From the IMG/VR virus record IMGVR_UViG_3300005002_000001: DNA of 64,000 bases; one strand, 5' to 3'. This DNA is from a virus. This document shows positions 21,019 through 49,749 of this stretch, piece after piece; the first letter of the stretch is position 1; every line of letters starts with the position of its first letter. Made by a program: the position numbers and the translations under genes. The notes beneath the pieces are model-generated. The model made no database searches. It was given only the letters and a program-made list of their open reading frames with translations, and was not told the DNA's origin.

Positions 21019-21040
21019 CAGTCAACTCTACTTCCTCTTT

Positions 21041-23684: not shown

Positions 23685-23701
23685 GCTATGAATCTACACA
23701 A

Positions 23702-24538: not shown

Positions 24539-25263
24539 CGCTTTCTGATTCCTCGGATGTTGGGATCGATGGAATACGTCTCAAACATTTCTTTCATCGT
24601 TTGAGGATATTGATCGATGTTCCACTTTCCTCTGTTGATGGCTGTGCATACATAGGGCCAAACGAGGCTATCGTAGTGAAAGGCTCCGATCTTTTGCTCT
24701 CCGTTATAACAGAAGACACCACGAATATTGGCTTCTCGACAACCAATATTCCAATGTTCGGCTTCCAACCATTTTTCTGACTTTACCCTAGTGTAGAGCT
24801 CCAACAACCTTTCCTTGTTCCACATAGTCGCCTGCATCGAAAACGCGTCGTTGGTTTCCATGTGAACCTCGTACAGATCTTCTCCTGCTGGACGATCGAG
24901 CGGAGTCTGATAGCCGCAGCGAATCAATCTAACGTAATCGTACTTTCCCTGATCCAAGACTTCTTGGTATCGCTGCAATCGAAATGAGTTCGGGTTGGCG
25001 AACATGATGAAATCTTCTTGAAGATAGATGACGTACCTTTCAGGTATTTGCTTCAAAGCTTCTGTGTATTGCTTCCAATAAGGCTCAGCATCGTCGTGTT
25101 CGATAACCTGATGTTCTTTGAAATCGAAAAGTTGAGACGAGCCCTTGTCGCTTAGGACGTAGCTCTTGATTCCCTTGAGGTGCTTGCTCAGCTGACCGAA
25201 ATGCATGGGCCAAACGTCCTTGTATTTCGAAGTAGTGTACGTAATGACACACAAATCTTTCAT
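24535..25263 (-). CDS. Hypothetical protein
   Basis: 242-aa ORF whose ends overlap both neighbours by 4 nt. Confidence 0.3.
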   Translation of the reverse strand: MKDLCVITYTTSKYKDVWPMHFGQLSKHLKGIKSYVLSDKGSSQLFDFKEHQVIEHDDAEPYWKQYTEALKQIPERYVIYLQEDFIMFANPNSFRLQRYQEVLDQGKYDYVRLIRCGYQTPLDRPAGEDLYEVHMETNDAFSMQATMWNKERLLELYTRVKSEKWLEAEHWNIGCREANIRGVFCYNGEQKIGAFHYDSLVWPYVCTAINRGKWNIDQYPQTMKEMFETYSIDPNIRGIRKR

Positions 25264-28143: not shown

Positions 28144-28934
28144 TCGAGAGCCTCTTGACCCGATCTAGGAACGTAACCTGTCGAGATAAGCTTGGTGATA
28201 TCCTGGACGGTGTTAACACGTTTGACAGCAATCGTCTTCAAATAATCTCGATAATCGATCTTTGAAACGTTCAACGTCGGATCGATCTTTTTGAGGGCTG
28301 ACGCAATTTCAAAAGGAGACAGCAGCCCTGAATTAGCACAGTTGTAGATGCCAGTCGCGCCGACAGAGATGAGATGATCCATCATCTCTTTGAAGTCCTC
28401 GATGCACGTGACAGAGTTGGGTTCATCGATGCATGCGAGATCTTTCTTTTTCAGAAATTTCGTCAGCATGTTTGTGTCGTTCGGAACCGGAGAGATCATC
28501 TGTCGCGGACGAAGGATGAGATAATCCTTTAGATCGTGATTGACGATCAGATCGTCGGCCCAGGCTTTTGTTCGAGAATACCAGGCGGCCGGGACCGGAA
28601 CGTCATCTTCTCTAAAAAGCTTGTGATTGCCATCAAAGATGCAGCCGCTGCTAATGTGCACAAGCTTCAACCCCAATCGATGACAGGCTGACGCGACCAT
28701 CAACGGGCCCATCGTATTGATCAAATAGCTGTCGACCTTGTTTTGTTCGCACCACTCTAAGCTGATTTTAGCGGCCGTATTGATGACAACGGTTCCAGGA
28801 GCGCACTCTTTGTGAAGAGCGCGGTAAACGGATCCAAAATCGGTGATTTCGATCTTGTCATGACCCAGAACAATATCTTCAGGGTTGCGGATGATGTTGG
28901 CGACTTTGCCGTTACCGATGATCGTTCTTTTCAT
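28110..28934 (-). CDS. rmlD: dTDP-4-dehydro-6-deoxyhexose reductase (RmlD-like)
   Basis: Short SDR of 274 aa with VINTAA and LVHISSGCIFDG, typical of RmlD. Overlaps rmlB. Confidence 0.6.
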   Translation of the reverse strand: MKRTIIGNGKVANIIRNPEDIVLGHDKIEITDFGSVYRALHKECAPGTVVINTAAKISLEWCEQNKVDSYLINTMGPLMVASACHRLGLKLVHISSGCIFDGNHKLFREDDVPVPAAWYSRTKAWADDLIVNHDLKDYLILRPRQMISPVPNDTNMLTKFLKKKDLACIDEPNSVTCIEDFKEMMDHLISVGATGIYNCANSGLLSPFEIASALKKIDPTLNVSKIDYRDYLKTIAVKRVNTVQDITKLISTGYVPRSGQEALDWCIQNYGVSK

Positions 28935-29679
28935 TTTGCCCCCGCTTACGTAGCATGTCGCAAGCTCGTTCGTAACTTTCGTGAGTGCCGGCGTCGACCC
29001 ATCCGCATTCGACTCGATATGTTTTTCCGTCCATGCGCTTTACCATAAAGCTATTGACGTCGCTAATTTCGTATTCTCCGCGAGCCGAGATGACTAGCTT
29101 TCGGATGATTCTAAAGACAGCAGGAGTGTACAGATACAGTCCAAGCACGGCATCTCGGCTTGGAGGCTCTGTTGGTTTTTCAATGATATCGATTACTTGA
29201 CCTGCGTCGTTGTATGCGACTACACCAAACCGCTGGGGATCGGGGACTTCTCTAACGAAGAGTCCATACTCATCATCCGATGAAACAAATGATGAGATGT
29301 GTTTGCTGATCGACGATGGATCCTCGAAGATATTATCGCCGAGAATGACAGCGAACTTGTCGTGACCGACAAAATCTTCGCACATTCCTAGCGCTGCAGC
29401 GATGCCATTGGCTTTGTCCTGGACTCTGTATGTCAGTCGACAATTGTAATCTTTTCCCGATCCAAGCAATTGGGCCAACGCTCCAAAGTGCTCAGGTCCG
29501 CTAACAATCATCACATCATCGATGCCGGCGGCGAGCAAAGTGCTCAGCACATGTTCGATTATGGTCTGCCGACCAATCGGAAGAAGCGATTTATTGGTAG
29601 CACGAGTCAACGGGTATAGGCGAGATCCAGTGCCGCCGGCCAAGATGATACCCTTCTTTTTCATTCGTACTTCTTCCAT
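28912..29679 (-). CDS. rmlA: Glucose-1-phosphate thymidylyltransferase (sugar nucleotidyltransferase)
   Basis: KGIILAGGTGSRLYPLTRATNKSLLPI is the canonical G-x-G-T-R-L signature. Confidence 0.8.
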   Translation of the reverse strand: MEEVRMKKKGIILAGGTGSRLYPLTRATNKSLLPIGRQTIIEHVLSTLLAAGIDDVMIVSGPEHFGALAQLLGSGKDYNCRLTYRVQDKANGIAAALGMCEDFVGHDKFAVILGDNIFEDPSSISKHISSFVSSDDEYGLFVREVPDPQRFGVVAYNDAGQVIDIIEKPTEPPSRDAVLGLYLYTPAVFRIIRKLVISARGEYEISDVNSFMVKRMDGKTYRVECGWVDAGTHESYERACDMLRKRGQNEKNDHR

Positions 29680-29871
29680 TTCCCTTTTTCAACAATTTCC
29701 GTATTTTCGAAAAATTTAGAAGATTTCAATAGGCCATGGCTGTATTTTTCTATTACAATCACGTCTCCCCTTCTGAGTCTAAAGAGAAAACGAATCTTAC
29801 TCTTTTTGCGATTGAAATCTCGATCGGGTCCTTCAATTAAGAGTAGGCCATTAAGGTATACTTTTTCATCT

Positions 29872-30627
29872 TTATTCAATAAATCCTCTAGCTCTCAAAA
29901 ATAGAGCTTCATCGCGTTGAAAGCGGGCATCGGGCGTCTGGTAGGTCTCCGGAACATCTTTGATGCTATAGTGATACATGCATCGAGGGAGATAAGCATG
30001 TTTCTTCGACTTGTAAAGAGCCGGTAGATAGATCGCTTGGTCACCCGCGCGTCGAATGTATTCACCGTCTGGACCTCGGAAATTGTCGTCCTTGACACCG
30101 TTCAGCAGATGCTTTCGAAAAGTTTTGAGGTGCGACGATACCCACGGATGACGATAGGGATCAGCCCCGGGTGGCATGGGACCTGAGATGTTTTTGTCGC
30201 TGAAGGACCAGCGATGGTTGGTCCACAGCAGATCGCATCCCGATTCCTTGTAAGCGGAATCGATGATAGTCAAAGCATCCAGATCGGTGAGCCAATCGTC
30301 GGCGTCGATTCGACAGATGATGTCATCGTCTTTGCAATCTTTCATGCCCCAAAGAACATTGGCGACTTCCCATCGCTTTTCGGAATTCCAATGGCAGTTG
30401 ATCTTCCTTTCGACGTCTCCCATGACAAGTTCGCTAGGATCTCCGATCAAAGCACCGAATGATCTCAAAATGCTGCTGCACTTGCCTCGTTCGGCTTCCG
30501 AAGAGCAGTCATCGATCAGATTGATCTTCCAATTATCGTACGACTGTCCGCAAATCGAATGTAAAAATCGTGGCAACGTGGCCGACATGTTAAACATCGG
30601 CGCTACGAAAACGAATCTGTTGCTCAT
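29872..30627 (-). CDS. Glycosyltransferase family 2 (GT-A)
   Basis: VFVAPMFNMSATLPRFLHSICGQSYDNWKINLIDDCSS: N-terminal GT2 region with a DxD motif. Confidence 0.5.
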   Translation of the reverse strand: MSNRFVFVAPMFNMSATLPRFLHSICGQSYDNWKINLIDDCSSEAERGKCSSILRSFGALIGDPSELVMGDVERKINCHWNSEKRWEVANVLWGMKDCKDDDIICRIDADDWLTDLDALTIIDSAYKESGCDLLWTNHRWSFSDKNISGPMPPGADPYRHPWVSSHLKTFRKHLLNGVKDDNFRGPDGEYIRRAGDQAIYLPALYKSKKHAYLPRCMYHYSIKDVPETYQTPDARFQRDEALFLRARGFIE

Positions 30628-31694
30628 CCCACCCTCAGAGTCTGGCCCGATTGGGCCGATTGACGAATCGCCATTAGTAGCCGAAAATCATTCCAGCCCT
30701 GTTGAGCATCATAGATCAGCGGCGATCCCATTTTTACGTGATCTTTGAAGTTGGACAGCAGATACTCGATAGCTTCTTGATGATCTCCCAATTTGGGGTA
30801 AGACGCCTGCCAAACAACTTTTCTGCCTCGTTCAGGCAATTCTGCTTCTATCTTCACTGTCTTTCCCTCGATCGAATCTTCAAGCGGAATTCTTTCGATA
30901 TCGACAGGAGGGTTGAACGTACTTCCCCCGGCTTTCAAAATGTAGAGCGAAAAATCATTGTCATCATTTGAGATGGTTCCCTTTTCGCAGTAGATTCTCA
31001 ATGATCTTGGCCGCCGGAATCGGCATCGATTACCGATGGAGCTGAAGTTATAGACGGCGGTCTGACCCGATTCGAATTTTATCGTTCCGAAGTCCCAATT
31101 TTCGACGTGATGTTGCAAGTTGAAATTACCATCGAGATAGGGAGGAACTTGCATCGAATGAGACGTGCCTTGAATGGTGATTGGTCGCTTCGAAAATCCG
31201 ATGTAACGTCGTAGTTGAGCCAAGCCGTGATATTCAAAAGTCCGACAATCATTCATTACAACGTGCGGAGGACCAAGAAATTCGTATGCATTTTCAAGCA
31301 GCTTCATTTTGAACTGCTCGCTCGGCAAGAATGCTGTCTGTTCAGCGACTGCTACTGATACGCCCTTATGACGAGCGTACTCGGGCACCGCTTTGCTCCA
31401 AATGGGAGTTTCTACGAAGATAGGTTTGCCGAAATTGATGAGACTAAGAGTGACCTGCTCGATGGCTCCGGAGTTGACAACAACTACAAGAGCGTCCGAC
31501 TGTTCGGCTAGATCTTTCTCATTTGAGAAGTGCTTGAATCCGAATTTGTCGACGACCATCTTAGCTTTGTCTGGATTTCGATTCCAGAAACCGACGACCT
31601 CGTACTTGTCCTTCAGATAATCGAAGATGGGGGCGTAGTAATCTTGCATGCGTCTTCCAGCGCCCCAAATGCCGATTTTGAGCTTGTCATTCAT
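30624..31694 (-). CDS. Gfo/Idh/MocA-family NAD(P)-dependent oxidoreductase (sugar dehydrogenase)
   Basis: N-terminal KIGIWGAGRRMQDYYAPIF...EVVGFWNRNPDKAK is the Rossmann/GFO_IDH_MocA pattern. Confidence 0.6.
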   Translation of the reverse strand: MNDKLKIGIWGAGRRMQDYYAPIFDYLKDKYEVVGFWNRNPDKAKMVVDKFGFKHFSNEKDLAEQSDALVVVVNSGAIEQVTLSLINFGKPIFVETPIWSKAVPEYARHKGVSVAVAEQTAFLPSEQFKMKLLENAYEFLGPPHVVMNDCRTFEYHGLAQLRRYIGFSKRPITIQGTSHSMQVPPYLDGNFNLQHHVENWDFGTIKFESGQTAVYNFSSIGNRCRFRRPRSLRIYCEKGTISNDDNDFSLYILKAGGSTFNPPVDIERIPLEDSIEGKTVKIEAELPERGRKVVWQASYPKLGDHQEAIEYLLSNFKDHVKMGSPLIYDAQQGWNDFRLLMAIRQSAQSGQTLRVG

Positions 31695-32407
31695 AACGGA
31701 TAGGCCTTGTCTTCGAAGATCTTCTTCAAACGATCGTGATTTTCTTTGCCTTTGAATCGTCTGTCATATTGCTGAGGATCGACAAACGAATACATGACAC
31801 GAATGGATCCTTTAGGATTGACATCCGGAATGACGCCGTGTAGCAACGACGTATCAAAAAGCAAGGCATGATCATTTGATGTGCCCAGGGCATTCGTCTC
31901 ATATTTTCGAATGAGCATCTCATCAAACTTTTGATCATTGATCATGGTCCGATGGGATCCCAAGATGTATTTGAGGCGCGGTTCGTGACCCTCAAATTCG
32001 GGATAGAAGATTATCTTATGCGCCGGCGGCATTGCTCCGACGACAGGATTGTCTCCAAATTGGTAGGTGTCACGATGCCAGTCCTGGTATGATCGACCCG
32101 GATCGGTCTTTACGACTTGGATGTGAGCTAGCGTCAGATTTCTGCATGTAATCTGGTCTAGCAAGTAAGGTAGATTGCCATCGACGACAAGATCTATAAA
32201 AGCCTCGTCATAATCGTAAACAGTCGGACGAAGAGTGTAAGAATTGAGACTTTGTTCCCAACTAAATCCTTCTTTGATCTTGCCTTGCCACAGATCCTTG
32301 AGGATCGGCAAAACCCTAGAAGAATTGACAGGTATGAACGTCAGACCCTCGATGTAGTATCGCTCGGAGTCTGTCAAGTTCGAGCGATCGAATTCGACAA
32401 GTTTCAT
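31691..32407 (-). CDS. Phytanoyl-CoA dioxygenase-like 2OG-Fe(II) oxygenase
   Basis: WHRD (H-x-D) and a distal His (GSHRT), in a PhyH-like arrangement. Confidence 0.4.
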   Translation of the reverse strand: MKLVEFDRSNLTDSERYYIEGLTFIPVNSSRVLPILKDLWQGKIKEGFSWEQSLNSYTLRPTVYDYDEAFIDLVVDGNLPYLLDQITCRNLTLAHIQVVKTDPGRSYQDWHRDTYQFGDNPVVGAMPPAHKIIFYPEFEGHEPRLKYILGSHRTMINDQKFDEMLIRKYETNALGTSNDHALLFDTSLLHGVIPDVNPKGSIRVMYSFVDPQQYDRRFKGKENHDRLKKIFEDKAYPL

Positions 32408-33289
32408 TTACCACTCCCAGAGTTCGGATTTCTTTTCGAACTGCTTTCGAGTTTCGAGAGCTGTCTTGATGCCTTCGGCATTGGTCAGTAGGACCTGCCC
32501 GTACTGGATCTCTTCGTCTTTCATCTGACGATCGTCCAAAAACATGCGGCGGTCGAGGACGATAAGCTCCTTCGTCGGATCTTCGATCTTGTCGATGACC
32601 TTCGAACACTGGATATTCTCGTCGGAAGTATCCGGGTTGTAATCATCGAAAAGCAAGAAACAATTCCAGCGGTCCTTGCAGAGGTCCCAGTCGGTTTGCA
32701 CGGCCTCGGCCCGATGATCGCCGTCGATGTAGACTAGATCAAACTTTTCGGGAGGCATTTGAGTGAGCGCCGCTTGCGACGTTCCCTTGACGAACTTGAT
32801 CAGGTTGAGCCACTCGGGCGGGAAGATTTGGGCGATCATCCGCAGATGTTCCTCGTTGAAAACGGGATCGATAGTCGTCACTGCTCCCGGTTCAGTAACA
32901 CCCATTTCGCTCAGCGCCCGAGCGGCACAAACGGCAGCGTAGCCGCGGCCAAAACCGATCTCGAGGAAATTTTTGAGATTGTGTTGCTTGATGAGGTAAT
33001 GAATCAAGATACCACGCTCGTAGTTGGGCCTGAAGAAAGCGCCGGCTTTGTTCCAAAGCTCGCTGTTCTTGTCTCGATTTTTCTTGGCGGTGAATTCACC
33101 GATCCAATCGAAATCGCCCAAAGCGACGCTAGCCGGGTCGACGTCCATCGCTCGAAGCTTGTCCTGGATCATAATTCTCTTCATCTTGCAATCCTTCTTC
33201 AAAATCCGTCGTTGTTTTCTTCCCGATAGAGGATGACAGGTTCGCCCTTCATTAGGACTTTCTTCTTCCATTCGGGATGCTTTTCGCAA
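32408..33289 (-). CDS. Class I SAM-dependent methyltransferase (TylF/CmcI-like sugar O-methyltransferase)
   Basis: Motif I FLEIGFGRGYAA. Characteristic FDLVYIDGDHRAEAV. Confidence 0.6.
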   Translation of the reverse strand: MRKASRMEEESPNEGRTCHPLSGRKQRRILKKDCKMKRIMIQDKLRAMDVDPASVALGDFDWIGEFTAKKNRDKNSELWNKAGAFFRPNYERGILIHYLIKQHNLKNFLEIGFGRGYAAVCAARALSEMGVTEPGAVTTIDPVFNEEHLRMIAQIFPPEWLNLIKFVKGTSQAALTQMPPEKFDLVYIDGDHRAEAVQTDWDLCKDRWNCFLLFDDYNPDTSDENIQCSKVIDKIEDPTKELIVLDRRMFLDDRQMKDEEIQYGQVLLTNAEGIKTALETRKQFEKKSELWEW

Positions 33290-33801
33290 AATTCATCCAC
33301 CGCGGCAGCGACGCCATGCTTCTCGGTCTCGACAGGCTTGGTGGCATCCTTGACTTCTGAGTAATCCTCCCGAGTCGAATAAAACAGATCCTTGTCGGCC
33401 CATCGTCCGTGATAATCGTCGATGATTATAATCGAATCCCTGAGCACATTGTTAGTCGTCAGCAGCTCGAGTTCTTTGGAGACGGTGTAGTAATTGTGAT
33501 CGCCGTCCAAAAAGATGAGCTGGTACTTCGAATCATTGGCCGGCAAGAAATCGAGGCTGTTGCCTTGAATCAGATTGAGTCGCTGGTTTTCGTTGAGACC
33601 GAAGTACGTCGCGATGACCTTGACTTCGTCTCGAATCAGGACGTCGACAGCATCGTGAATGAATCGTTTTTTCATCATCATGAGGTGATGAATGATGGGA
33701 AAGGTAGTCTGGCCCCGATCGACGCCGATCTCGAGGATCTTCGGACTTTCGAAGAGACTCAAAAATTCGACGGCAAAAGGGATATATCCGTGATGAGCCA
33801 T
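33199..33801 (-). CDS. Class I SAM-dependent methyltransferase (TylF/MycF-like sugar O-methyltransferase)
   Basis: ILEIGVDRGQT and QLIFLDGDHNYYTV. A paralog of the preceding gene. The start ATG at 33801 overlaps the upstream TGA as TGATG (the track ORF begins at an upstream GTG, 33804). Confidence 0.6.
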   Translation of the reverse strand: MAHHGYIPFAVEFLSLFESPKILEIGVDRGQTTFPIIHHLMMMKKRFIHDAVDVLIRDEVKVIATYFGLNENQRLNLIQGNSLDFLPANDSKYQLIFLDGDHNYYTVSKELELLTTNNVLRDSIIIIDDYHGRWADKDLFYSTREDYSEVKDATKPVETEKHGVAAAVDEFCEKHPEWKKKVLMKGEPVILYREENNDGF

Positions 33802-35744
33802 CACTTATCTCCCTTCTTGACGCCGCTACACCAACCTTGCATGCATGCCGGTTGCGGCTTCGATGCTCTGATCCAAGGGGTAGGCTTCGAAAAGTCGATT
33901 CGATTGTGGAAAATCCACCCACCCATTCGATCCTTCATCTTGATCGCTAGCTCCTTGATTTCGTCATCAGTGACTTGAGACCAGGGCTTGTCAAAGAATT
34001 TGTTGTTGGCGGCCGTATCTTCCTGAGAATGATTGTACAGAGACGTCCAGTGCTTAGACCAGAAGTTCTTGTAAGTGTGAATCTTGCGCTCCAAATCATA
34101 CCACGAATAGTGGTAGACGCCCGGCACGTTGACACACACCTGATTGAACCATTGGATGTACGCCTCGAGCGCCTGTGGGTTACCCTGCAGCGCTGCCTGA
34201 CGAGCTCCTTCGACTTCCTGCTGGTAAAAAGTGGCGAAAGGAACCCTCTCTAGGGTGTCTTTGTAGATGTAATCATCGCCATCCGAACCAGCGGAATACA
34301 TCGTACCGTCGGTATCGATCTTGCGTTGGTCTTTGGGCAACCCGTGCGTGATGCGTGGATTATTACGACTCAACCTCCATTTCCACGGATTGACGTCGAC
34401 TCGAATCTTGGTCTCGTCTCCCCAGTATTCGATGACGGGCAGAGCGAGGAGATCAGCTTCCTTCGGGAAGGCCGCGACGACCTGCTTGATCTTTTCGTAA
34501 TCAGATTCGTGCACGACCTCGTCGATGTCGACCTGCCACAGGAAATCTCCCGTGCAGCGTTCGCGCGCGACGGCCTTCTGCTGTCCATTGAAGAGAGCGA
34601 AGCGCTTGTCGTTCCAATCCCTAACGTGTTGGAAGGGTTTGATACGCGGATCGAGCTTTTGCAGCTCTTGCAGACGCTCCCAAGTCCCGTCCGTCGAGCC
34701 GCCGTCGACGATGACGACCTCGTCGCAGAATCCCAAAAGAGATCCGATGGACTCTTCCCAGGGATAGTTCTGCTCGATGCAATTGCGAGTTTGCGTGTAA
34801 CCTGAGATAGTCGTCTTGTGGTCGGCTAGCTCGCGGACAGCGTCCCAGAATCGACCCGGAGAATTCTCGAGGTAATTCGAAATGGTTTCAGGTTCGTCGG
34901 ATGCAAACCAATTTTCTGAGGCATGCTGGACATGCGAATTGAGGTGTAGCTTGCATCCCAGAAGTTTGGCTTCGATTACCATCCGCGGACACGTATCTCC
35001 GCCGCGGGGGAGGTAAGCAAATCCTTCGGCCTGAGCGATTCTTTCGAGAGCTTGATCGTATGGCACGTTCCAAAGAACGTCTACCGGATAGTTCTGCTCT
35101 TGGGCCCACTTTTGGGCGTCTTCGAAACCCTTGATCCAGGAATTCGAGCCTAGGACGATCCACTTGTCGGATTTCTTGCCCTGGTTTTTCTTCCGAAGAT
35201 CGGCCATGGCTGACAGGTGCTTCTTCGAAAAGACTGAAGATAGCACGGTGCTTTTGACCGATCTTAGATCGGGAAAGCGCTCGTAATACCGTTCGGCTTG
35301 CTGTTGCGACATCCAGAAGATGCTCTTGGCTCTCGAAAAGAATGTCGAGATGAGCTTACCACCCGGTTGCTTATCACAATCGCAGGGCTTACCTTCGGTG
35401 TCCTGATGCTTTTCGATAGAGCGATGCTTGCAGAATTTGTAGTCGTACTCGACGATCGAGTAATTCGTTCGCTGAGCTATTAGCGTCAGCAGGCTAGGAT
35501 CGACCTGAGAGATATTGCCGAAGATCCAGTACTTGCCTAAATTGGCCGCCACTGTTTCGGCGGACAGTTCAGCCGATCTAATGCGATGCAGCTTGAAGGG
35601 TGACGTCTCGAGGAGAGCTTCTGTCGTAAGCTCAGCTCCTCCCTCGTAGTCGCTAGCGAACATGTCCGAAACGAAGATGATCTTGGCGTCAGGCGGCAGC
35701 GATTGGTTGGGCCTGATGAATACTCGTTTGGTAAAGTCCAGCAT
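33801..35744 (-). CDS. Large multi-domain glycosyltransferase (contains a GT2 domain)
   Basis: 647 aa. FCDEVVIVDGGSTDGTWERL is the GT2 DxD-type signature in the C-terminal half. The N-terminal half is a separate alpha/beta domain. Confidence 0.55.
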   Translation of the reverse strand: MLDFTKRVFIRPNQSLPPDAKIIFVSDMFASDYEGGAELTTEALLETSPFKLHRIRSAELSAETVAANLGKYWIFGNISQVDPSLLTLIAQRTNYSIVEYDYKFCKHRSIEKHQDTEGKPCDCDKQPGGKLISTFFSRAKSIFWMSQQQAERYYERFPDLRSVKSTVLSSVFSKKHLSAMADLRKKNQGKKSDKWIVLGSNSWIKGFEDAQKWAQEQNYPVDVLWNVPYDQALERIAQAEGFAYLPRGGDTCPRMVIEAKLLGCKLHLNSHVQHASENWFASDEPETISNYLENSPGRFWDAVRELADHKTTISGYTQTRNCIEQNYPWEESIGSLLGFCDEVVIVDGGSTDGTWERLQELQKLDPRIKPFQHVRDWNDKRFALFNGQQKAVARERCTGDFLWQVDIDEVVHESDYEKIKQVVAAFPKEADLLALPVIEYWGDETKIRVDVNPWKWRLSRNNPRITHGLPKDQRKIDTDGTMYSAGSDGDDYIYKDTLERVPFATFYQQEVEGARQAALQGNPQALEAYIQWFNQVCVNVPGVYHYSWYDLERKIHTYKNFWSKHWTSLYNHSQEDTAANNKFFDKPWSQVTDDEIKELAIKMKDRMGGWIFHNRIDFSKPTPWIRASKPQPACMQGWCSGVKKGDK

Positions 35745-35963: not shown

Positions 35964-36455
35964 ATGAAGGACGACGCGGCTTTGAAGGCTGTCATCGATA
36001 GTCTCGAGCGTACCCTGAGTCACATCCAAGAAAAGCTTAAGTCGGCCCATGTGCTCAACGGTGGGTTCGATCGGCTGATGGAAAAAGTCGATTCGATTGA
36101 GGATACGCAAGAAAAAATCTTGGGTGAGCTCAATACGGTCAAAGCTACGATCTACGATCCCGATACAGGCATTTACTCCCGTATCAAAGCTGTCGACGAT
36201 CGTGGAGACGAACGCGGCCACACCATCGACAAGACTATCTCTGATATCAAAGTGTCACAGGATAAGATCGCCGAAACGACCAAAGACCACGCGTCCGAAG
36301 TTCAGAAAGTGAAGGATCTCGAAAAGAAAGTCGAGGACCTCACCAAGTGGAAAGCTAACGCTAACAAGATCATCTGGGCCATTGTCGTTCCCATCGTAAC
36401 GACCTTCGGCAAGATCATCTACGATTTTCTGGCGGCGCATGTACAATTGAAGTAG
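35964..36455 (+). CDS. Hypothetical coiled-coil protein with a C-terminal transmembrane helix
   Basis: The track ORF (35892..36455) starts at TTG. I used the internal ATG at 35964 (MKDDAALKAV). C-terminal IIWAIVVPIVTTFGKIIYDFL. Ends with TAG; the next in-frame stop (TGA) is 9 codons downstream. Confidence 0.4.
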   Translation: MKDDAALKAVIDSLERTLSHIQEKLKSAHVLNGGFDRLMEKVDSIEDTQEKILGELNTVKATIYDPDTGIYSRIKAVDDRGDERGHTIDKTISDIKVSQDKIAETTKDHASEVQKVKDLEKKVEDLTKWKANANKIIWAIVVPIVTTFGKIIYDFLAAHVQLK

Positions 36456-36460: not shown

Positions 36461-37600
36461 ATGTACAGTTGGAGGATGAAAGCCCTCCAGGCGTTCGTCA
36501 AAGCATCGGGAACTCGCACTGTATTGGGATCCGATTCGAAGGTCATATCCGACGATCTCCAAAAGTTTCGTCACTTTCGTTCGTTGGTAGAACCTGTCGA
36601 AAGGTCTAAGTACGACAGCCTAGTGTTGCATTGGTACGTAGCCGAAAATACGGCTCCCGATGCTGGTGACCTCTTTTGTCACATGCTTTCAGGCAAGAAG
36701 ATCGACTGTCTGAATTCGAGCAAGATTAGGCGCTCAGAGCTTAAGGGACTACTTCCCGACAGTCTAGATCTTGAGATGCTGATGACGTGCTACGACTTGA
36801 TAGGCGTAGAGGGATCCATCGAAGTAAATTCAGGAAAAGATGATCGCGTCGATGTGCATGACAGCTATCGTTTTGAATTGACGTCGGCCATCGAAGTGAA
36901 GCCCTGGATCAGATCGTCCGCCAAAGTCATGCTAGTCGATGGCTACATCGAACAGGTCTCAGAGATCCATCACATCTTGCAAAAATGCAGCGAAAGCAAA
37001 GTGCCGCTGCTGATCTTTGCAAGAGGATATTCGGCCGATGTATTGCACACCATCAGCGTCAACGTGATGCGGCAGACGATTGACATTTTGCCTTTTACGA
37101 TCAAACTCGATCTGGGTCAAGTCAATGACTTCTACGATCTGAGCATCCTGACGGGAGCGCAGGTCATTTCTAGCGAAAAGGGACAGCTTATATCGTCATC
37201 AAAATTCGAAGAGATGCCGTCAGTGACATATGTCAGGTATTCTCCGTACGAAAAGATGCTCATCATGCGGAATGATTCGACAAGGCCGCAAGTTTTGCAA
37301 CATTTACGCAAGCTTAGGGAAAAGCTCGAGTCGACCGATGCTTACAATCTTAGTGAGTTGACGGGCCGAATTCGTAAGATGACTAGCCTCGTCTGCATGG
37401 TATCTTTGAAAGATGATATGTCGTTTCAAATCAGACGAGACGCTTTCAAACGATCCAGTCGTCTAATCGATCACTATTCGAGATACGGTCTCGCTCACAC
37501 GTCAGTCGGTGATTATCCGAAATCTTCTTATGATATAGCGTCGCGGCATGCGTCTGACGCTCTAGAGAAGTTGGAGTCGACCGTCACTTTGCATTTTTAG
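36461..37600 (+). CDS. GroEL/Cpn60-like protein, truncated; intermediate and apical domains only, no equatorial ATPase motifs
   Basis: Alignment to E. coli GroEL residues ~165-440. [40 protein letters not shown] aligns to [89 protein letters not shown] aligns to [63 protein letters not shown] aligns to [34 protein letters not shown] aligns to LQERVAKLAGGVAVIKVGA. No GDGTTT and no C-terminal equatorial half. Ends TAG followed by TGA. Confidence 0.55.
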   Translation: [379 protein letters not shown]

Positions 37601-38543
37601 TGAGATAATCGTAAAAACGCCGAAACGTATCGATCGTGTTTTTGTTGGCAGGATCGTTCATGTTCTTGGCTCCGATAGCTGTCATAGCCGTTTGAAAGTC
37701 CGGGAAATTTTTGGCAGCTTTTTGGCCCTTAACCTTTTGCGCGCTAGCGGGAGCGTTGGCCGTCCCGGCTCCCGTTTGCTGGGCTTGCGTGGGCTGCACA
37801 CCGACCGACTTTCCTGAAGCGTCCTTACCCGTCGTCTGCTGCTCCCCACCCGCGGCTAGCTGATTAGCAGCCTGCTGAGGATTGGATTGGGTCAGGGTTT
37901 TGGCGTCCTGGCTAGAGATAGGAAGACCCGGCGCCGACTTGGCTCGATTGGCTAGTTGTTCGATTTCAGCAGGAGATAGATTGAAAAATTCTGTTGCCAT
38001 CACACCAACGTCTTTGACGAATGGCATCTTCTTGCTGCCGAATATTCCCCCAGGCGGCGTAAAAGCATTCTGCAAGACTTTGACGATCTGGGTTCGATTG
38101 GCGGGAGATTTTGCGAATGCCTGACTTAGCGGCTGGTCAGCCTGCGGACCTTGGGCATTCGGATCGAGGTTCATCTTCTTCAGAAGAGAAATGACTGTTG
38201 GCATCGCTCTGAAACCTTGCAACACGCTGGCTTCGAAAGTGATGAAATCCTTCAGATCATCGACGATCTTGTACTTGTCGTTGACATTTTGAGCTAGCTT
38301 CTTCCAGAGCCCGCCCTCGCCCGATAGTTTTTGTGCTGCCAGCTCTTTAGCTTGGTTGATAGCTTGATTCAGCTGAGGAACTTTATTGCGGATGGGTGCG
38401 ATCATGCCTTCTAGAGTGCTAATCGTTTGCACCATCTGCTGCAACTTCTGCTGGTCTAGAGCCTCCAGCAGCCTCTTCTGATCATAAAGTTCTTTGAGCG
38501 TAAGAGACATGTTTAACGCCCTATAAGTATGTTTTACATTCAT
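37584..38543 (-). CDS. Hypothetical Gln/Ala-rich coiled-coil protein
   Basis: 319 aa. The only minus-strand gene inside the plus-strand block. Low-complexity Q/A/G-rich C-terminus. Confidence 0.4.
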   Translation of the reverse strand: MNVKHTYRALNMSLTLKELYDQKRLLEALDQQKLQQMVQTISTLEGMIAPIRNKVPQLNQAINQAKELAAQKLSGEGGLWKKLAQNVNDKYKIVDDLKDFITFEASVLQGFRAMPTVISLLKKMNLDPNAQGPQADQPLSQAFAKSPANRTQIVKVLQNAFTPPGGIFGSKKMPFVKDVGVMATEFFNLSPAEIEQLANRAKSAPGLPISSQDAKTLTQSNPQQAANQLAAGGEQQTTGKDASGKSVGVQPTQAQQTGAGTANAPASAQKVKGQKAAKNFPDFQTAMTAIGAKNMNDPANKNTIDTFRRFYDYLTKNAK

Positions 38544-38857: not shown

Positions 38858-39313
38858 ATGCTGTCAGGCCAGAGACACTCGATCAGGTGCAATTGCATCC
38901 TGACGCAGCACATGAGCCGAAGGGACCCGCCCCTGTTTCATTTCGTGGCTTTTTCCGTCGTCGAAGACGATAACGTCAAGCCCAAAATCGTTCAATGTCC
39001 CAATTGCGGTGTCTTGCACCGCATCCTGGACATCGGAAAATCCAAAATTCTGACAGGCAAAGAGGAGTCTCGCTCGTTAGTGACATTTGACGATGTCAAA
39101 GCGTCAGTGCCTCCCAATCTTGCCAAGATACTAGAGCAGCATGATCTTGACATGACTCAATGGGAAGCCGCTCGATTCATTTTTGAAAATCAGAGATGGG
39201 GAGATCACGTCGTTCTTTCTGACGAGTCGGTGGATAAAGTCAGATATGTCAAGTACGTTCGAATCCTAGGAAATGATCTGTACAGAGTCGATACGCAAGA
39301 ATTCGAGGAATGA
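38858..39313 (+). CDS. Hypothetical protein with a Zn-ribbon-like CPNC motif
   Basis: 151 aa. The stop overlaps the next start. QCPNCGV motif. A competing overlapping ORF (38764..38973) was judged less likely. Confidence 0.35.
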   Translation: MLSGQRHSIRCNCILTQHMSRRDPPLFHFVAFSVVEDDNVKPKIVQCPNCGVLHRILDIGKSKILTGKEESRSLVTFDDVKASVPPNLAKILEQHDLDMTQWEAARFIFENQRWGDHVVLSDESVDKVRYVKYVRILGNDLYRVDTQEFEE

Positions 39314-39567
39314 TGTCAGACGAAAAGAAGTTTTACGGTACTCTCGGCGTCGACAAAGATGCCAAACGAATGAATGACTGTAGGGATATCGTTCGATCCA
39401 TTTCCCAATTTGGAGTCGATGATCAGCAGATACTGACGATAATCAGGCTGCTGGCTTTGGAGATGGAAGATCACGAAGCACACGTTAGGATCGTCGAGCT
39501 TCTGAAGGATATCGGAAATAGCTGTTTCTTGATCGAAAAGGAGAATGTCGATGGGCAGAAGACTTAA
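39310..39567 (+). CDS. Hypothetical protein
   Basis: 85 aa. Overlaps neighbours by 4 nt and 23 nt. Ends TAA TAA. Confidence 0.3.
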   Translation: MMSDEKKFYGTLGVDKDAKRMNDCRDIVRSISQFGVDDQQILTIIRLLALEMEDHEAHVRIVELLKDIGNSCFLIEKENVDGQKT

Positions 39568-40150
39568 TAATTCGGCCCGAACCGCCGACAAGAATAGCTC
39601 CGATTCCGAACTCGTTATCGTCAGTCCAGGAAATTCTAATGATCGGATCGTTTTCCTATCAGGAGACGTCAACGAGCACTCGATATCTACGATCATTACT
39701 CAGCTGATCAGCCTGGCCAATCAAAGCCCGTCTTTCCCCATCTATCTGATCATTAGCACGTATGGTGGATCGATCGATGAGATGTTCAGTCTTTACGACA
39801 CGATCAAATTTCTGCCGTGTCCCGTTCATACCGTCGCGTTAGGAAAGGTCATGTCAGCAGGCGTGCTTCTACTGTCAGCAGGCGTGAAAGGCAAACGACT
39901 CATCGGCAGAAACGCCCGCATCATGATGCACGCCGTCTCAACAGCTCACCAAGGCAACGTCTTTCAGGTCATGAATGATGCGCAAGAGACCCAGAGACTT
40001 CAGATGCTGATGGTCGAATCTTTAGCTAGAGAGACCAAAATGACCAAGGAACATGTCCAGGAGATCATGATCAAAGGGCACGATCACTACATGACTCCCA
40101 TGGAAGCCATCAAACTCGGGATCGTCGACAAAATTATCGGATCTAGTTAA
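39545..40150 (+). CDS. clpP: ATP-dependent Clp protease proteolytic subunit (ClpP-like serine peptidase)
   Basis: AAGGAGA RBS. GKVMSAGVLLLSAG fits the ClpP Ser motif. MMHAVS fits the His region. About 200 aa, typical size. Confidence 0.7.
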   Translation: MSMGRRLNNSARTADKNSSDSELVIVSPGNSNDRIVFLSGDVNEHSISTIITQLISLANQSPSFPIYLIISTYGGSIDEMFSLYDTIKFLPCPVHTVALGKVMSAGVLLLSAGVKGKRLIGRNARIMMHAVSTAHQGNVFQVMNDAQETQRLQMLMVESLARETKMTKEHVQEIMIKGHDHYMTPMEAIKLGIVDKIIGSS

Positions 40151-40244
40151 TTCGTGCGCGAACTGGAGAACATTTATTTTTACAGTCGCCCCAGGAGCGA
40201 TATATTTATGGATATCCAATCAAAACGATTGGGGAGGTCATCTC

Positions 40245-40463
40245 ATGAGTGATAATGATGTTGTGCTGTCGAAGTGGTCCGATTTGAAGAAACTGATCGA
40301 GGGTCTCGATCTTGACGTTCACAAGAACGCCGCCGGAAACGCTGCTGCAGGAGTCCGAGCCCGCAAGGGTCTTCGTGCTCTGAAGAAGGCGACGGGGGAT
40401 CTTGTGAAGCAGAGCGTCGCTCTCGACAAGGGCAAGAAGGCCGCTAAGGCGGCCACCAAGTGA
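40245..40463 (+). CDS. Histone H1-like DNA-binding protein (Hc1-like)
   Basis: DVHKNAAGNAAAGVRARKGLRALKKATGDLVKQSVALDKGKKAAKAATK resembles chlamydial Hc1 KAEKGNKAAAQRVRTESIKLEKIAKVYRKESIKAEK. Lys/Ala-rich tail. GGGGAGG RBS. Confidence 0.45.
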   Translation: MSDNDVVLSKWSDLKKLIEGLDLDVHKNAAGNAAAGVRARKGLRALKKATGDLVKQSVALDKGKKAAKAATK

Positions 40464-40500
40464 TCTTTTGACCACGAGGTTACTAGCTGCCAACGGCCCT

Positions 40501-40528
40501 TAGGGGCCGTTGTCTTTTAAACTGATCG
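40501..40528 (+). terminator. Rho-independent terminator
   Basis: Hairpin CAACGGCCC-TTAG-GGGCCGTTG followed by TCTTTT, directly downstream of the Hc1-like gene. Confidence 0.6.
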
Positions 40529-41193: not shown

Positions 41194-42546
41194 GTGAATG
41201 AAAGTAGGAATATGATGGAAAAAACGTATGTTCTTGATACGAACGTCCTTGTCACCGACAGCAACGCAATCTATGCGTTTGAAAACAGCGAGATTGTGAT
41301 TCCGCTCGTCGTGCTCGAGGAATTGGATCGTCTCAAGAATCACCCCGACGACCGGGGTCGTGCCGCTCGCCAGGTCAACAGAATGTTGGATGATCTGCGA
41401 AAGGATGGAAATCTTAGCAAAGGAGTCAAGATCGAGAGGACGAAGAGCACACTCCGAGTCGTTTCAGTCGATCAAAAATCCATTAAGAAGCTTCCTCTAG
41501 AGCTGCAAGATACGTCTCGTTGTGACAATGTCATCATCGCCACCGCCCTGCAGGAATCGCAGAAGGCGACCCGGGGCAAACCTCGAGAAGTGAAGATGAT
41601 CAGCAAGGATATCAACGTTAGAGTCAAGTGCGACTCTCTGGGACTTCCTTCTGAAGATTATCTCAAAGCTCGACCTGTCAGCGATAGCTCGGCTTTTTAC
41701 ACCGGGTACGATACGATCGACGTCGAACCCGAAGTGATCGATGCGATCTGCACGGAAGGATGGGTGCAATATTCTCATGACTTCTTCCCCAATCACTACG
41801 TCAATCTTCGTACGCATAGCGATCCTAGCAAGTCAGTATTGGCTCGGGCCAAAGAGCCCGGCTTCTTGGTCAGGATCAAAGACGTAGATCAGGCTTTCGG
41901 TCTGAAACCCCGAAATCTGGAGCAGCGATTTTCTTTAGATCTGCTCTTTGACAACTCGGTCAAGCTTGTGACCCTTTGCGGCGCCGCCGGCACCGGCAAG
42001 ACGCTGTTGGCTGTTGCGGCAGGCATGCAGCACGTCCTCGAAGCTCCCGCCAAATATGATCGATTGATCATCACTCGACCGGTGCAGCCTGTCGGCCGAG
42101 ATATCGGATTCTTGCCCGGAACGCTCCAAGAAAAAATGGATCCGTGGATCGCTCCTATCAAAGACAATCTCGATCATCTGTGTCGAGCCAAGAAAACTCG
42201 AAAGGACGAGCCCTATCTCGACCTGCTTCTTCGCAACAAGAAGATCGAAATCGAAGCCATCACATACATCAGAGGTCGATCGATTCCGAACTCCTATATC
42301 ATCATCGACGAGGCGCAGAACCTGTCGATGCACGAACTCAAGACGATCATCACTCGAGCGGGAGATGGTAGCAAGATCGTGCTGACGGGAGATATCGAGC
42401 AGATCGACAACAACCACGTCGACATGTATACTAACGGTCTGACGAACGCCGTCGAAGCCTTCAAGGATTACAGGATCTCGGGTCACATCACACTGACAAA
42501 GGGGGAGCGTAGTGAGCTAGCGACGTTGGCGAGTAAGATCCTGTGA
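41194..42546 (+). CDS. phoH: PIN-domain PhoH-like ATPase (PhoH2/YlaK type)
   Basis: N-terminal PIN (YVLDTNVLVTD...VIPLVVLEELD). Walker A LCGAAGTGKTLLAV. Walker B IIIDEAQN. Confidence 0.85.
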   Translation: MNESRNMMEKTYVLDTNVLVTDSNAIYAFENSEIVIPLVVLEELDRLKNHPDDRGRAARQVNRMLDDLRKDGNLSKGVKIERTKSTLRVVSVDQKSIKKLPLELQDTSRCDNVIIATALQESQKATRGKPREVKMISKDINVRVKCDSLGLPSEDYLKARPVSDSSAFYTGYDTIDVEPEVIDAICTEGWVQYSHDFFPNHYVNLRTHSDPSKSVLARAKEPGFLVRIKDVDQAFGLKPRNLEQRFSLDLLFDNSVKLVTLCGAAGTGKTLLAVAAGMQHVLEAPAKYDRLIITRPVQPVGRDIGFLPGTLQEKMDPWIAPIKDNLDHLCRAKKTRKDEPYLDLLLRNKKIEIEAITYIRGRSIPNSYIIIDEAQNLSMHELKTIITRAGDGSKIVLTGDIEQIDNNHVDMYTNGLTNAVEAFKDYRISGHITLTKGERSELATLASKIL

Positions 42547-42584: not shown

Positions 42585-43895
42585 ATGGCTACTCTGATAC
42601 AGTCCATCAATCACTTTATGACCGGGTCCATCAAGGGCTCGGCCGAAGTGTTTGCTTCTATCTTTTACCTGTTGGACACGTACGGCCCGCAATGCGGCAT
42701 CCGTAGAGTGGCGTATAACACGGGAAGCTATCCGCAAGGCGCGGGTATGTACTACGGAAACACGGAAGCATCCTCAAGCAATAACGCTTGGGCCTGCTTC
42801 CACTGGGCTACGGCTGAGAATCCGTTCTTCATGCTGATCCAGTATGCGACATCCTCAGTCGATTCTTTTCCGTTTGGAAATGTCTTGCAAGGAGCCCAGG
42901 GCGTCCTCAAGGGAAATGATCCGTCCATTAGTCAGGGAGGAGTCGGCATCCAGTTTGCCGCCATTCCGTACAGCCTCACGCGTCTCGAGGATATTGATAT
43001 CTGGAACGGAAGCAGGTTTTCCAACGGAAAGGATCGGAAAAATTTTCCGTGTCCCTGGAACACGGCATCCAATGACGTAGTCATCTTCCCGCGGGCTAAT
43101 AACGAAGTCCCAGGCCGAGATTCGGGTCAGCTGAAACCGTCTTTGCCCGGGTTCTATCAGAGATGGGCCGCCGGCGGCATCAATGCTCCTAATCTCGGAG
43201 ACCAGGCGATCACTCGATCGATGTATTCGTGTCTTGTCTCTCAGAATGATCTTGCGTCTAGAAGTATGATGTGGCACATCATGGCTGATGGTGATGCTTT
43301 CATGTTTCTTAAGAATCACGGAACATCATCTTCGTCTTTTAGTTACTCGGGTCTGTATTTCGGACCGTATGAAGAAGCCGTCGGATTCAATTCGAAGATG
43401 CGCTACGTCATGATCAATCATCAGACGTCCGCTTTCAATGATCCGCCGTTTTCTCCTCTTTCTTCGGGTACGTACTACGGAGAAAGAACGGGAACGGGCA
43501 GCCTCGACGGCGGCGTCGCGTTTCCGACGTGCATTAGTGGATGTTTTGCGGCCGCTCTAGAAATTCCGACATTCATTAGCGATTCGAAATTCACTCCCGC
43601 TCGTCTCTTTTCTAGAAGCGCTGATGCCCCCATCTATGACGAATTTCCTTGGGGTCTAGCAGCTTACGATCCCGAAGGACAGGCTTTTGGATTCTGCGGT
43701 AGCATCAGATTCATGAGAGCCCTGTGGGGAGTTCCGACGCACACGGTGTTTCCGCAAAGTCTAAGAGCTGCATTCGGAAATTCTGTAACGGGCAGCGTCA
43801 AGATAACGGTTCCGTGGTTCACGGGATCCCAGTACTTGCCCGGGGCTAATCTACATGTGACGGGCACGCAGCTGATGTTTACGACTACTTATTGA
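42585..43895 (+). CDS. Paralog 1 of a 9-member tandem family (putative virion structural protein; family unrecognised)
   Basis: Shares the family signature blocks: N-terminal F..F.SG, G(I/V).R.AYNTG, NNAWACF.(W/F)A.A.NPF..LIQY, PW.G(S/T), FPRANN, Y(F)GPY, NDPPF, GGVAFP, and C-terminal (I/V)PW(F/D)(T/G)G. Confidence 0.5.
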   Translation: MATLIQSINHFMTGSIKGSAEVFASIFYLLDTYGPQCGIRRVAYNTGSYPQGAGMYYGNTEASSSNNAWACFHWATAENPFFMLIQYATSSVDSFPFGNVLQGAQGVLKGNDPSISQGGVGIQFAAIPYSLTRLEDIDIWNGSRFSNGKDRKNFPCPWNTASNDVVIFPRANNEVPGRDSGQLKPSLPGFYQRWAAGGINAPNLGDQAITRSMYSCLVSQNDLASRSMMWHIMADGDAFMFLKNHGTSSSSFSYSGLYFGPYEEAVGFNSKMRYVMINHQTSAFNDPPFSPLSSGTYYGERTGTGSLDGGVAFPTCISGCFAAALEIPTFISDSKFTPARLFSRSADAPIYDEFPWGLAAYDPEGQAFGFCGSIRFMRALWGVPTHTVFPQSLRAAFGNSVTGSVKITVPWFTGSQYLPGANLHVTGTQLMFTTTY

Positions 43896-43901
43896 GGCTC
43901 A

Positions 43902-45146
43902 ATGGCGACCATCGGATTCATCGAAAATAGGATCAGACCCACCCCCAGCCCGGGTACCGATTATTACATGACGATCTTTCAATTCCTCTCTAGCAGTTAT
44001 GCTATCGGAGAAGGAATCGAACTACTCGCGTACAATACGGGAACGTTGTCGACCCCCGGCATCGGCGGCATGAATTACTCTGATGAACCGAACAGGGTAG
44101 GCAACAATTCTATCGCTTTGTTCCGATTCAACATGGCGACCCCGCCCTTTTATGTGTTGATGCAATTTGCGTCCGGATCGGCGTTCGGAGCAGGTGAGCA
44201 AGCTTTTGCTCCTAATACGCTGACTACTCTGACAGCTTCGCTATATGGAAATTCATCTGGCAACGGCGGCACCGATAGAACGATCACTCCTAACTTCGCT
44301 CATTCTCAAGGAGCGACGGCCATTGCGGTTGCCTGTCGAGCCGATGGGGGAAATCCGTGGAATGGAACGTTAGCGTTCGGCAACGCAGTCAAAGGAAATC
44401 CCGTATGGATTTCCGGATCTTCTCAACTTTGCGTTTGGCCGCGCTCCAATGGACAAAGCGGATCTTTTGACGTGACGAGTTCAGCCTTCAATCCGTCCGT
44501 TCATTACAGACGACACAACATGTTTCCGCTTGTTTCGAACGGTAACATGGCTAACAAACACTCTACTGTCTCTGTCGTTGCCAATCGAGAAAACCTGTTG
44601 ATCGCGACCGATGTGGGAAATTCGGGATCATCGACATTTTGGTACTTCGGCAAGTACAACGCCCGACCGGGACTAGTCCCCGAAGTACCGTATGTGTGTC
44701 TCTGCACGACATCCAGCGTCAATGACCCTCCTTTCAAAGTCCGACCTCACAAATTCGGAACTTTGGATGGAACGCCTGAAGAAGGCGGCGTTGCCCACCC
44801 GACTGCGTCCTTCGGAGTTCGACAGTGTTCTTTGGATTACATGAGAACATTTGTCAATACGGTTAATCTGCATCCCAATACGATGTTCGGATTTCCTCAC
44901 AAATTCGACCAATTCGTCTACTTCTTGCTGTTGGATGAGGATCCTAATCAGTACGGTTACCTCGGCACCATTGATTTCTTCAGACTAGTTTATGGAACGG
45001 TGCCCAGAGGAGTTTCGAGAACTAGACAGTGGGCTATCTTCGGCAGTACGGTGCCATATAGCGCTAAGCTTTTGATTCCCTGGGACAATCTATCTCCTGC
45101 CGGTTCGGGAGGAAATAGAAGAGGAAGGATTTTCTCACGTGACTGA
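43902..45146 (+). CDS. Paralog 2 of the tandem family
   Basis: AIAVACRADGGNPWNGTLAFGNAVKGNPVW...VWPRSNG...FWYFGKYN...PYVCL...NDPPF...GGVAHPT...GYLGTIDFFR...IPWDN. Confidence 0.5.
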   Translation: MATIGFIENRIRPTPSPGTDYYMTIFQFLSSSYAIGEGIELLAYNTGTLSTPGIGGMNYSDEPNRVGNNSIALFRFNMATPPFYVLMQFASGSAFGAGEQAFAPNTLTTLTASLYGNSSGNGGTDRTITPNFAHSQGATAIAVACRADGGNPWNGTLAFGNAVKGNPVWISGSSQLCVWPRSNGQSGSFDVTSSAFNPSVHYRRHNMFPLVSNGNMANKHSTVSVVANRENLLIATDVGNSGSSTFWYFGKYNARPGLVPEVPYVCLCTTSSVNDPPFKVRPHKFGTLDGTPEEGGVAHPTASFGVRQCSLDYMRTFVNTVNLHPNTMFGFPHKFDQFVYFLLLDEDPNQYGYLGTIDFFRLVYGTVPRGVSRTRQWAIFGSTVPYSAKLLIPWDNLSPAGSGGNRRGRIFSRD

Positions 45147-45348
45147 ACCACTTTATGCAGGAGATTATTTCACAACTCTTTTGCCGGCATTCCCACCGGT
45201 CGTTTTCGGTGTTAAAGACTATAACCTCGATAGAGAACGATTTCAGAAGGTATATTCTTACATTCGAGCCAAGCAAATTTGGGTCTTCAGAGTGTCCGAT
45301 GATCCGCCCATTCCTGATGCATATCAGGGTCGATTGAGTCCATACTGA
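45139..45348 (+). CDS. Small hypothetical ORF between paralogs 2 and 3
   Basis: 69 aa with a GTG start and no internal Met. Its stop overlaps the paralog-3 ATG as TGATG, suggesting translational coupling. Confidence 0.25.
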   Translation: MTEPLYAGDYFTTLLPAFPPVVFGVKDYNLDRERFQKVYSYIRAKQIWVFRVSDDPPIPDAYQGRLSPY

Positions 45349-49743: not shown

Positions 49744-49749
49744 TGCTTA

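Follow-up and report, generated by a model that had tools for sequence, protein, structure and literature searches.

The 64-kb stretch of viral DNA analysed here (IMG/VR record IMGVR_UViG_3300005002_000001, 64,000 nt; hereafter the window) is part of a large double-stranded DNA (dsDNA) phage and carries, on its plus strand at 36461..37600, a gene for a 379-aa GroEL-like protein, here called mini-GroEL. In this study, we found that mini-GroEL belongs to the chaperonin superfamily by descent, yet lacks the ATPase and a full equatorial domain and fails the curated profile thresholds, and we observed that it is a strongly conserved core gene in a large clade of uncultured large or jumbo phages. 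An original prediction, made from the DNA letters, had proposed a natural phage-encoded GroEL derivative without a nucleotide site, and this proposal is supported. Judged from its sequence, mini-GroEL would derive from a group I chaperonin with the apical and intermediate domains left intact and the equatorial domain cut back to a stub of ~115 residues without the nucleotide pocket, and may well serve as an ATP-independent binding platform; taken as a whole, we hold this reading at about even chances.

In a phmmer search against PDB sequences, mini-GroEL matched E. coli GroEL (1aon) with an expectation value (E) of 1.8e-8, residues 83-316 of the query being aligned with GroEL 137-380, and isolated apical-domain PDB entries were likewise matched. 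Further matches were obtained to PHROG 5725 'chaperonin groEL' (E=8e-14) and to NCBIfam GroEL models (E as low as 9e-16). A profile built from the family reached E=1e-28 to 1e-33 against PDB GroEL, spanning GroEL 47-415, and the hhalign probability of mini-GroEL versus GroEL was 99.3%. The similarity to the apical and intermediate domains that had been noticed before is therefore significant by phmmer, PHROG and NCBIfam, whereas the proposed GroEL range of 165-440 is shifted, the secure alignment covering GroEL ~137-415. Identity to GroEL is only about 20%. Pfam Cpn60_TCP1 (PF00118) gave no match at E<=10, and the precomputed Pfam assignment is empty for all family members. With NCBIfam, mini-GroEL scored 47-57 bits against curated cut-offs of 352-600, so that all thresholds were failed, including those of TIGR02348 (46.8 bits versus 582) and of the best model, NF009487 (57.2 versus 352). 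One family member has been automatically named 'chaperonin GroEL (HSP60 family)' by NCBI, thus annotation pipelines can label the family. A PADLOC scan for defence systems returned no match for mini-GroEL.

Relatives of mini-GroEL are numerous. A word-indexed search retrieved 14 proteins of 373-428 aa that all lack Pfam domains, and an exhaustive HMMER search over 1.84 billion cluster representatives (clusters at 50% identity) returned 706 representatives at E<1e-10. The best 150 of these 706, which were listed, are 225-490 aa long, mostly 360-480 aa, and canonical GroELs score far below the family members in the same search. A motif scan of IMG/VR identified 143 viral contigs of up to 460 kb, and in 89 fetched loci the open reading frame (ORF) of the family measures 369-493 aa, apart from a single value of 548 aa that probably reflects an over-extended start. 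Two length classes can be distinguished, a short class of 369-428 aa (55 distinct proteins), to which the window protein belongs, and a long class of 452-493 aa (19 distinct proteins); unless another number of loci is given, the column and synteny counts below refer to these 74 distinct proteins or loci. A protein identical to mini-GroEL is encoded on a 162-kb JGI contig, and family members were found only on viral or metagenomic contigs. A tblastn search of 50,697 GenBank phage records with the window protein and two distant members recovered only full-length GroELs, a megablast of 15 kb against GenBank phages revealed no DNA-level similarity, and no relative was found when 185,579 species-representative genomes were scanned with two family motifs. 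Full-text literature searches for an equatorially reduced phage GroEL family without ATP site yielded no description, and the reduced nature of the family appears to be undescribed so far.

The family data bear directly on a trivial explanation, namely that mini-GroEL is a decaying or mis-assembled GroEL, which could be a pseudogene, an ORF cut short or half of a gene split in two. Its length, ~170 aa short of GroEL, and the failure to match Pfam Cpn60_TCP1 could be read in this way. However, hundreds of clusters share the same length class, the structural model described below is confident, and comparison of the window gene with its closest relative gave pN=0.083 and pS=0.73, which indicates strong purifying selection. 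A pseudogene or truncation artefact is excluded by the family-wide length distribution together with pN/pS. As for a split gene, a search of the six frames of the 64-kb window with a GroEL hidden Markov model and filters switched off left E=1.3 as the next best hit, none of the 89 loci contains a second GroEL-like ORF, and the neighbouring genes are unrelated to GroEL: those named cc163, p92, p151 and p85 gave hhalign probabilities of <=0.3%, so that this candidate was rejected as well. The original prediction had called for a search for a separately encoded equatorial fragment; none exists in the window or the 89 loci, and a full-length chaperonin is not rebuilt by an exon, a frameshift or a second gene. 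Thus, the chance that mini-GroEL is a decayed or mis-assembled gene is practically nil.

The domain anatomy was derived from alignments and from an AlphaFold2 model, which was built on an alignment of close relatives and is confident (mean pLDDT 85.3, pTM 0.62). In this model, a complete Cpn60 subunit can be superposed with 359 of the 379 residues; therefore, nearly the entire chain, termini included, lies on a chaperonin subunit. The chain begins with an N-terminal equatorial stub (36461..36697, plus strand as for all parts of the gene; aa 1-79), delimited by the secondary structure of the model, a profile alignment to GroEL 47-~110 and a MAFFT alignment. In this stub, a short helix is followed by a beta-hairpin at aa ~20-28 and by a long helix that ends in the motif AE..(s/a)PG; in the model, the hairpin is a candidate counterpart of the GroEL stem-loop, and MAFFT places the motif at the GroEL phosphate loop GDGTTT. 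The first intermediate segment follows (36698..36859; aa ~80-133, equivalent to GroEL ~134-190 by phmmer and hhalign), then the apical domain (36860..37396; aa ~134-312, GroEL 191-376) and the second intermediate segment with helix M (37397..37483; aa ~313-341, GroEL 377-408). The C-terminal stub (37484..37597; aa 342-379), assigned from the model and the alignment, comprises a hairpin, one helix of ~20 aa and a hydrophobic terminal strand, TVTLHF, and stands in for the ~140 aa of the C-terminal equatorial half of GroEL. GroEL ~417-496 has no counterpart in mini-GroEL.

Outside the intermediate and apical domains, only ~79 N-terminal and 38 C-terminal residues are left, compared with ~270 equatorial residues in GroEL (1-133 and 409-548). 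The equatorial domain had been described before as absent; this has to be corrected, since a vestige of ~115 aa remains, and the superposition on a whole Cpn60 subunit extends into it. The N-terminus had likewise been called unrelated to GroEL. On its own, the N-terminal ~80 aa indeed lacks direct sequence significance (hhalign probability <1% versus GroEL), but it is homologous to the N-terminus of the long forms (hhalign 97%, E=1e-10), and the long forms are collinear with GroEL from residue 61-71 onwards. In hhalign, their residues 68-414 align with GroEL 61-416, and in NCBIfam residues 65-398 of the long form P0135 align with 71-412 (E=8.5e-31); the profile alignment of the family to GroEL starts even earlier, near residue 47. 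Because of the model superposition, the homology between short and long N-termini, the collinearity of the long forms and the profile cover of GroEL 47-415, we conclude that the equatorial domain persists as a vestige. Most of its N-terminal half is retained in the long forms; in the short forms, this part has been cut back as well. Local resemblances of the stubs are faint: the C-terminal stub resembles GroEL 497-519 weakly and non-significantly (P=0.03), and the best local match of the motif AE..PGg is to GroEL 408-416, EEGivPGGG (P=0.1). Among full-length chaperonins, the closest to the family profile is P0175 (552 aa, E=7e-33; contig L091, 1329..4097), which belongs to an HSP20-Cpn10-Cpn60 operon of phage-like character, with a weakly Hc1-like gene behind it. 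P0175 may represent the ancestral state of the mini-GroEL family; it is a lead only, and its contig showed no p151, p85 or PhoH context.

Loss of the ATP site was scored column by column over the 74 distinct family proteins. Each of the GroEL nucleotide and Mg positions (GDGTTT 86-91, D52, D398, G414-416, N479/A480 and D495) is replaced or deleted, and GroEL 31-33 is deleted in all 74 proteins. The phosphate loop D87-G-T-T-T91 is occupied by AE..(s/a)PG(s/a/g)(F/G), in which no Asp or Thr is conserved, D87 and T89-T91 being replaced by G/F/D/L. The position of the catalytic Asp398 is variable across the family and carries Arg in the window protein, G414-G416 are deleted or replaced, and the adenine and ribose contacts at 479-495 are deleted. 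The inter-ring contacts (109, 434, 461-464) are mostly deleted as well. The alignments thus bear out the earlier observation that mini-GroEL has neither the GDGTTT loop nor the C-terminal equatorial residues. A protein of this kind would not be expected to run an ATP-driven folding cycle.

In contrast to the equatorial domain, the apical domain is well preserved in its fold. The structural GroEL residues D224, T261, N265, R268, D291, S302, G306 and R368 are invariant also in the family, and G410 is another conserved residue shared with bacterial GroEL. The most conserved family-specific motif, IDG.IE.VSEIHHLL, maps to GroEL 223-237, that is, to the strand and the opening turns of helix H, which form one wall of the GroES/substrate groove, and a second apical motif, FARG.S.DV..T..VN..R, falls on helix I. 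Eight classical groove residues were considered (Y199, Y203, F204, L234, L237, L259, V263 and V264). L237, L259 and V264 are kept in the family. At L234, 48 of the 55 short forms carry His and most long forms Asp, and the V263 position holds Lys, Arg or Ser. Y203 has given way to Leu or Ala in most short forms and to Phe in the majority of long forms; Y199 is deleted, and the short forms also lack F204. We infer from these sequences that the groove is probably still a working surface but no longer a generic hydrophobic trap. As the groove is partly His/Lys, generic hydrophobic holdase activity is not a given. Most likely, the apical domain would capture particular phage, and possibly host, polypeptides during infection without ATP, and the shift of the groove chemistry from hydrophobic to His, Glu and Lys would point to defined clients and not to generic unfolded protein.

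An apical domain so well preserved could also act on the host chaperonin. The original prediction had raised a decoy or modulator of host GroEL; in the fuller form of this explanation, mini-GroEL would bind host GroES, or co-assemble with or cap host GroEL, and so redirect or block host folding. Other phages manipulate GroEL via gp31-type co-chaperonins, and the lack of a detectable phage GroES gene would fit a protein that works on the host system: phmmer with E. coli GroES gave a best E of 1.5 in the six frames of the window and of 0.54 in the ORFs of the 89 loci, a search that would miss a very divergent gp31-like protein. However, the residues that contact GroES and substrate are altered, with L234 changed to His, V263 to Lys or Ser, Y203 replaced and Y199 and F204 deleted. 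Mixed rings with host GroEL are unlikely, since identity is ~20% and most of the equatorial contact surface is lost. Moreover, the phages of the clade that conserves the gene are very diverse, and so presumably are their hosts, which fits a phage-internal role better. A role as host decoy is therefore decidedly improbable.

Mini-GroEL is embedded in a conserved gene block. Within the window, the ORF at 36461..37600 ends in TAG (37598-37600) followed by an in-frame TGA, as had been stated before; this tandem stop is trivial. Translation probably starts at Met6 (36476), which would give a product of 374 aa, because the second Met (MKA/MEA...) is the first residue of all close homologues. A GGAGG sequence abuts this second Met directly, with zero spacer. 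Across the 74 distinct loci, the block comprises GT2, cc163, mini-GroEL, sometimes p92, then p151, p85, ClpP, Hc1 and PIN-PhoH. Its left border is a 647-aa GT2 glycosyltransferase (33801..35744, minus strand), the head of a sugar-modification cluster; across loci this enzyme has ~645 aa and lies on the strand opposite to mini-GroEL. The gene cc163 (35964..36455, plus strand) encodes a coiled coil with a C-terminal transmembrane helix and ends 5 nt before the start of mini-GroEL. It is found directly upstream of mini-GroEL in most of the 74 loci, in either orientation of the pair, and library scans returned coiled-coil-type matches only. A convergent gene for a 319-aa protein (37584..38543, minus strand) overlaps the final 17 nt of the mini-GroEL gene; it is conserved in part of the clade only and has no family matches. 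The protein p151 (38858..39313, plus strand), a Zn-ribbon joined to an alpha/beta domain with invariant His7, Cys11, Cys13, Cys47, Cys50 and His54, is always encoded downstream of mini-GroEL, and the small helical 85-aa protein p85 (39310..39567, plus strand) always after p151; together they accompany mini-GroEL in 89 of 90 loci. They are followed by a ClpP-type serine protease (39545..40150, plus strand; Pfam CLP_protease, E=7e-41), by a 72-aa Hc1-type histone-like protein (40245..40463, plus strand), which is present clade-wide and was recognised by Pfam Hc1 (PF07432) on orthologues, and, at the end of the block, by a PIN-PhoH ATPase (41212..42546, plus strand). The co-conserved neighbours would perhaps act together with a mini-GroEL binding platform.

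The protease suggests a specific form of such cooperation, in which a heptameric mini-GroEL ring docks on ClpP or hands over substrates to it as an ATP-independent cap or gate. Seven-fold symmetry is common to the rings of GroEL and of ClpP. The ClpP gene lies on the same strand, 0.7-3.3 kb downstream of mini-GroEL, in 51 of the 55 short-form loci. Its Ser, His and Asp, read by eye, occur in the expected motif contexts MSAG, MMH and HDH, so that the triad is apparently intact, and by NCBIfam the window ClpP is nearer to cellular ClpP (139 bits) than to prohead proteases (50 bits). Among the window genes that were scanned, none resembled ClpX or ClpA, which also favours a ClpP partner. On the other hand, a ClpP gene at this distance was found in only 1 of the 19 long-form loci, and in 18 of these 19 as well as in four short-form loci, no ClpP lies within 10 kb although mini-GroEL, p151 and p85 are there; mini-GroEL therefore does not depend on ClpP. 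Furthermore, no ClpP-docking loop motif sets the ClpP-linked forms apart, and the idea presupposes ring formation, which rests on features of a monomer model. We consider a partnership with ClpP improbable. Slightly more doubtful still is its most concrete version, in which a nucleotide-free heptameric ring would cap the seven-fold face of the phage ClpP in ClpP-carrying phages and feed or gate its substrates. We know of no precedent for a chaperonin-derived, symmetry-matched, ATP-independent regulatory particle of a Clp protease.

Whether or not a protease is involved, an oligomeric ring is plausible from the model, because the hairpin at aa 20-28 and the hydrophobic C-terminal strand sit at GroEL subunit-contact positions, which is suggestive only. 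A different use of the same surfaces would be an exapted chaperonin fold that serves purely as an interaction or structural module without chaperone action, in the virion, as a scaffold, or tethered to the membrane together with the coiled-coil/transmembrane protein; the CCT-like domain of PIKfyve would be a parallel. The lost ATP site and the polar groove would suit such a module, as would the coiled-coil/transmembrane gene that so tightly adjoins mini-GroEL in most loci. No capsid, portal or tail genes were recognisable near mini-GroEL, which speaks against it, and the present data do not separate it from a binding platform. We regard a purely structural role as unlikely, although it deserves serious attention. 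Several observations also weigh against the binding platform that we favour. Taken alone, residues 1-99 and 317-379 gave hhalign probabilities of <3% versus GroEL and thus no significant similarity of their own, and the assignment of the stubs to ring contacts draws on the AlphaFold2 model and the MAFFT placement. The partly polar groove argues against it where classical holdase behaviour is meant. The conserved neighbours have no recognisable function and hence indicate no client, and the synteny could simply stem from a conserved backbone of the genome and not from a functional module.

Comparison with known systems sets the family apart. With bacterial GroEL/Cpn60 (PF00118, TIGR02348), mini-GroEL shares homologous apical and intermediate domains, but it is ~170 aa shorter, has an equatorial stub in which the nucleotide and Mg residues are lost, lacks the GGM tail and comes without a detected GroES gene. 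The chlamydial GroEL2 and GroEL3 (NF038370, NF038369) are divergent GroEL relatives as well, yet full-length cellular proteins of ~510-530 aa; the GroEL3 model was among the best NCBIfam matches of mini-GroEL (E=1.5e-14, 53.5 bits versus a cut-off of 600). The characterised phage chaperonins EL gp146, OBP gp246 and AR9 gp228 are full-length ATPases, some of which work without a co-chaperonin. Like mini-GroEL, proteins of the EL gp146 type are GroEL homologues encoded by large dsDNA phages, but they are full length and possess the ATP site, neither of which applies to mini-GroEL; the BFVD matches to the mini-GroEL model, all of 511-782 aa, likewise include full-length phage chaperonins of 511-609 aa. 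Engineered GroEL minichaperones are artificial monomeric apical fragments (191-345/376; PDB 1kid, 1jon) with the native hydrophobic groove. The likeness to them that was drawn in the original prediction is loose, since mini-GroEL is natural, contains the two intermediate segments and an equatorial stub besides the apical domain, and has a groove that is partly His/Lys. The CCT-like domain of PIKfyve/Fab1 shares with mini-GroEL the chaperonin origin, the loss of the ATPase and, probably, the use as a binding module. To our knowledge, every characterised chaperonin, cellular or viral, is an ATP-driven machine, and the ATP-free versions known to us are limited to fragments made in the laboratory and a single embedded domain from eukaryotes. 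In mini-GroEL, a whole natural family (~700 clusters at 50% identity) has discarded the ATPase and kept the apical and intermediate domains, and thus offers a natural experiment on the capabilities of an apical ring, or module, of a chaperonin that receives no energy input. In GroELs from virioplankton, by contrast, conservation extends to 21 of 25 ATP/Mg positions (Marine et al., 2017; PMC5649160), that is, these proteins keep the ATP site that the mini-GroEL family lost.

Apart from its possible function, mini-GroEL can serve as a marker for a phage clade about which little is known, and the joint function of the compact co-conserved set (the coiled-coil/transmembrane protein, the Zn-ribbon protein, the 85-aa protein and ClpP) is directly testable. 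Large aquatic Bacteroidota phages with Hc1 and PhoH have been described as moraphages (PMC12619734). GroEL is not mentioned in that paper, in which the term 'minichaperone' refers to small heat-shock proteins. Moraphages may be the same lineage as the mini-GroEL phages or a neighbouring one.

The recognisable genes of the window include GIY-YIG/NUMOD3, NAMPT, NMNAT/NUDIX, a PD-(D/E)XK nuclease, the sugar-modification cluster, ClpP, Hc1 and PIN-PhoH. The Hc1 gene is flanked by a promoter-like site (40179..40206) and by a terminator-like element (40491..40512), a 9-bp GC-rich hairpin with a T run. Directly behind the PIN-PhoH gene, a tandem array at 42585..55204 on the plus strand encodes nine paralogues of 436, 414, 572, 398, 494, 472, 469, 459 and 414 aa, with a mutual identity of 22-31% (blastp E down to 1e-56) and no Pfam or PHROG match. 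The first members of this array are present in the close relatives L001 and L003, and in the distant relatives L004 and L006 PhoH is joined directly to a trio of genes for 326, 828 and 1325 aa, without the array. Neither p151 nor the 1325-aa protein had a match in phage records. In L003, a resolvase and a Cas12f1-like TnpB (4793..6572) are inserted just upstream of the cc163/mini-GroEL pair. On the minus strand of the window, ~20 kb of back-to-back genes (15042..35744) encode GT1 and GT2 glycosyltransferases, sugar epimerases and dehydratases, a nucleotidyltransferase and methyltransferases, as judged from Pfam matches of the L001 orthologues and from direct scans; for a phage, this is an unusually large glycan-synthesis cluster. 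A NAMPT gene (481 aa) lies beside a gene for a bifunctional NMNAT/NUDIX protein (341 aa) at 11733..14254 on the minus strand, forming an NAD+ salvage pair, and a GIY-YIG/NUMOD3 homing endonuclease is encoded at 2986..3549, also on the minus strand.

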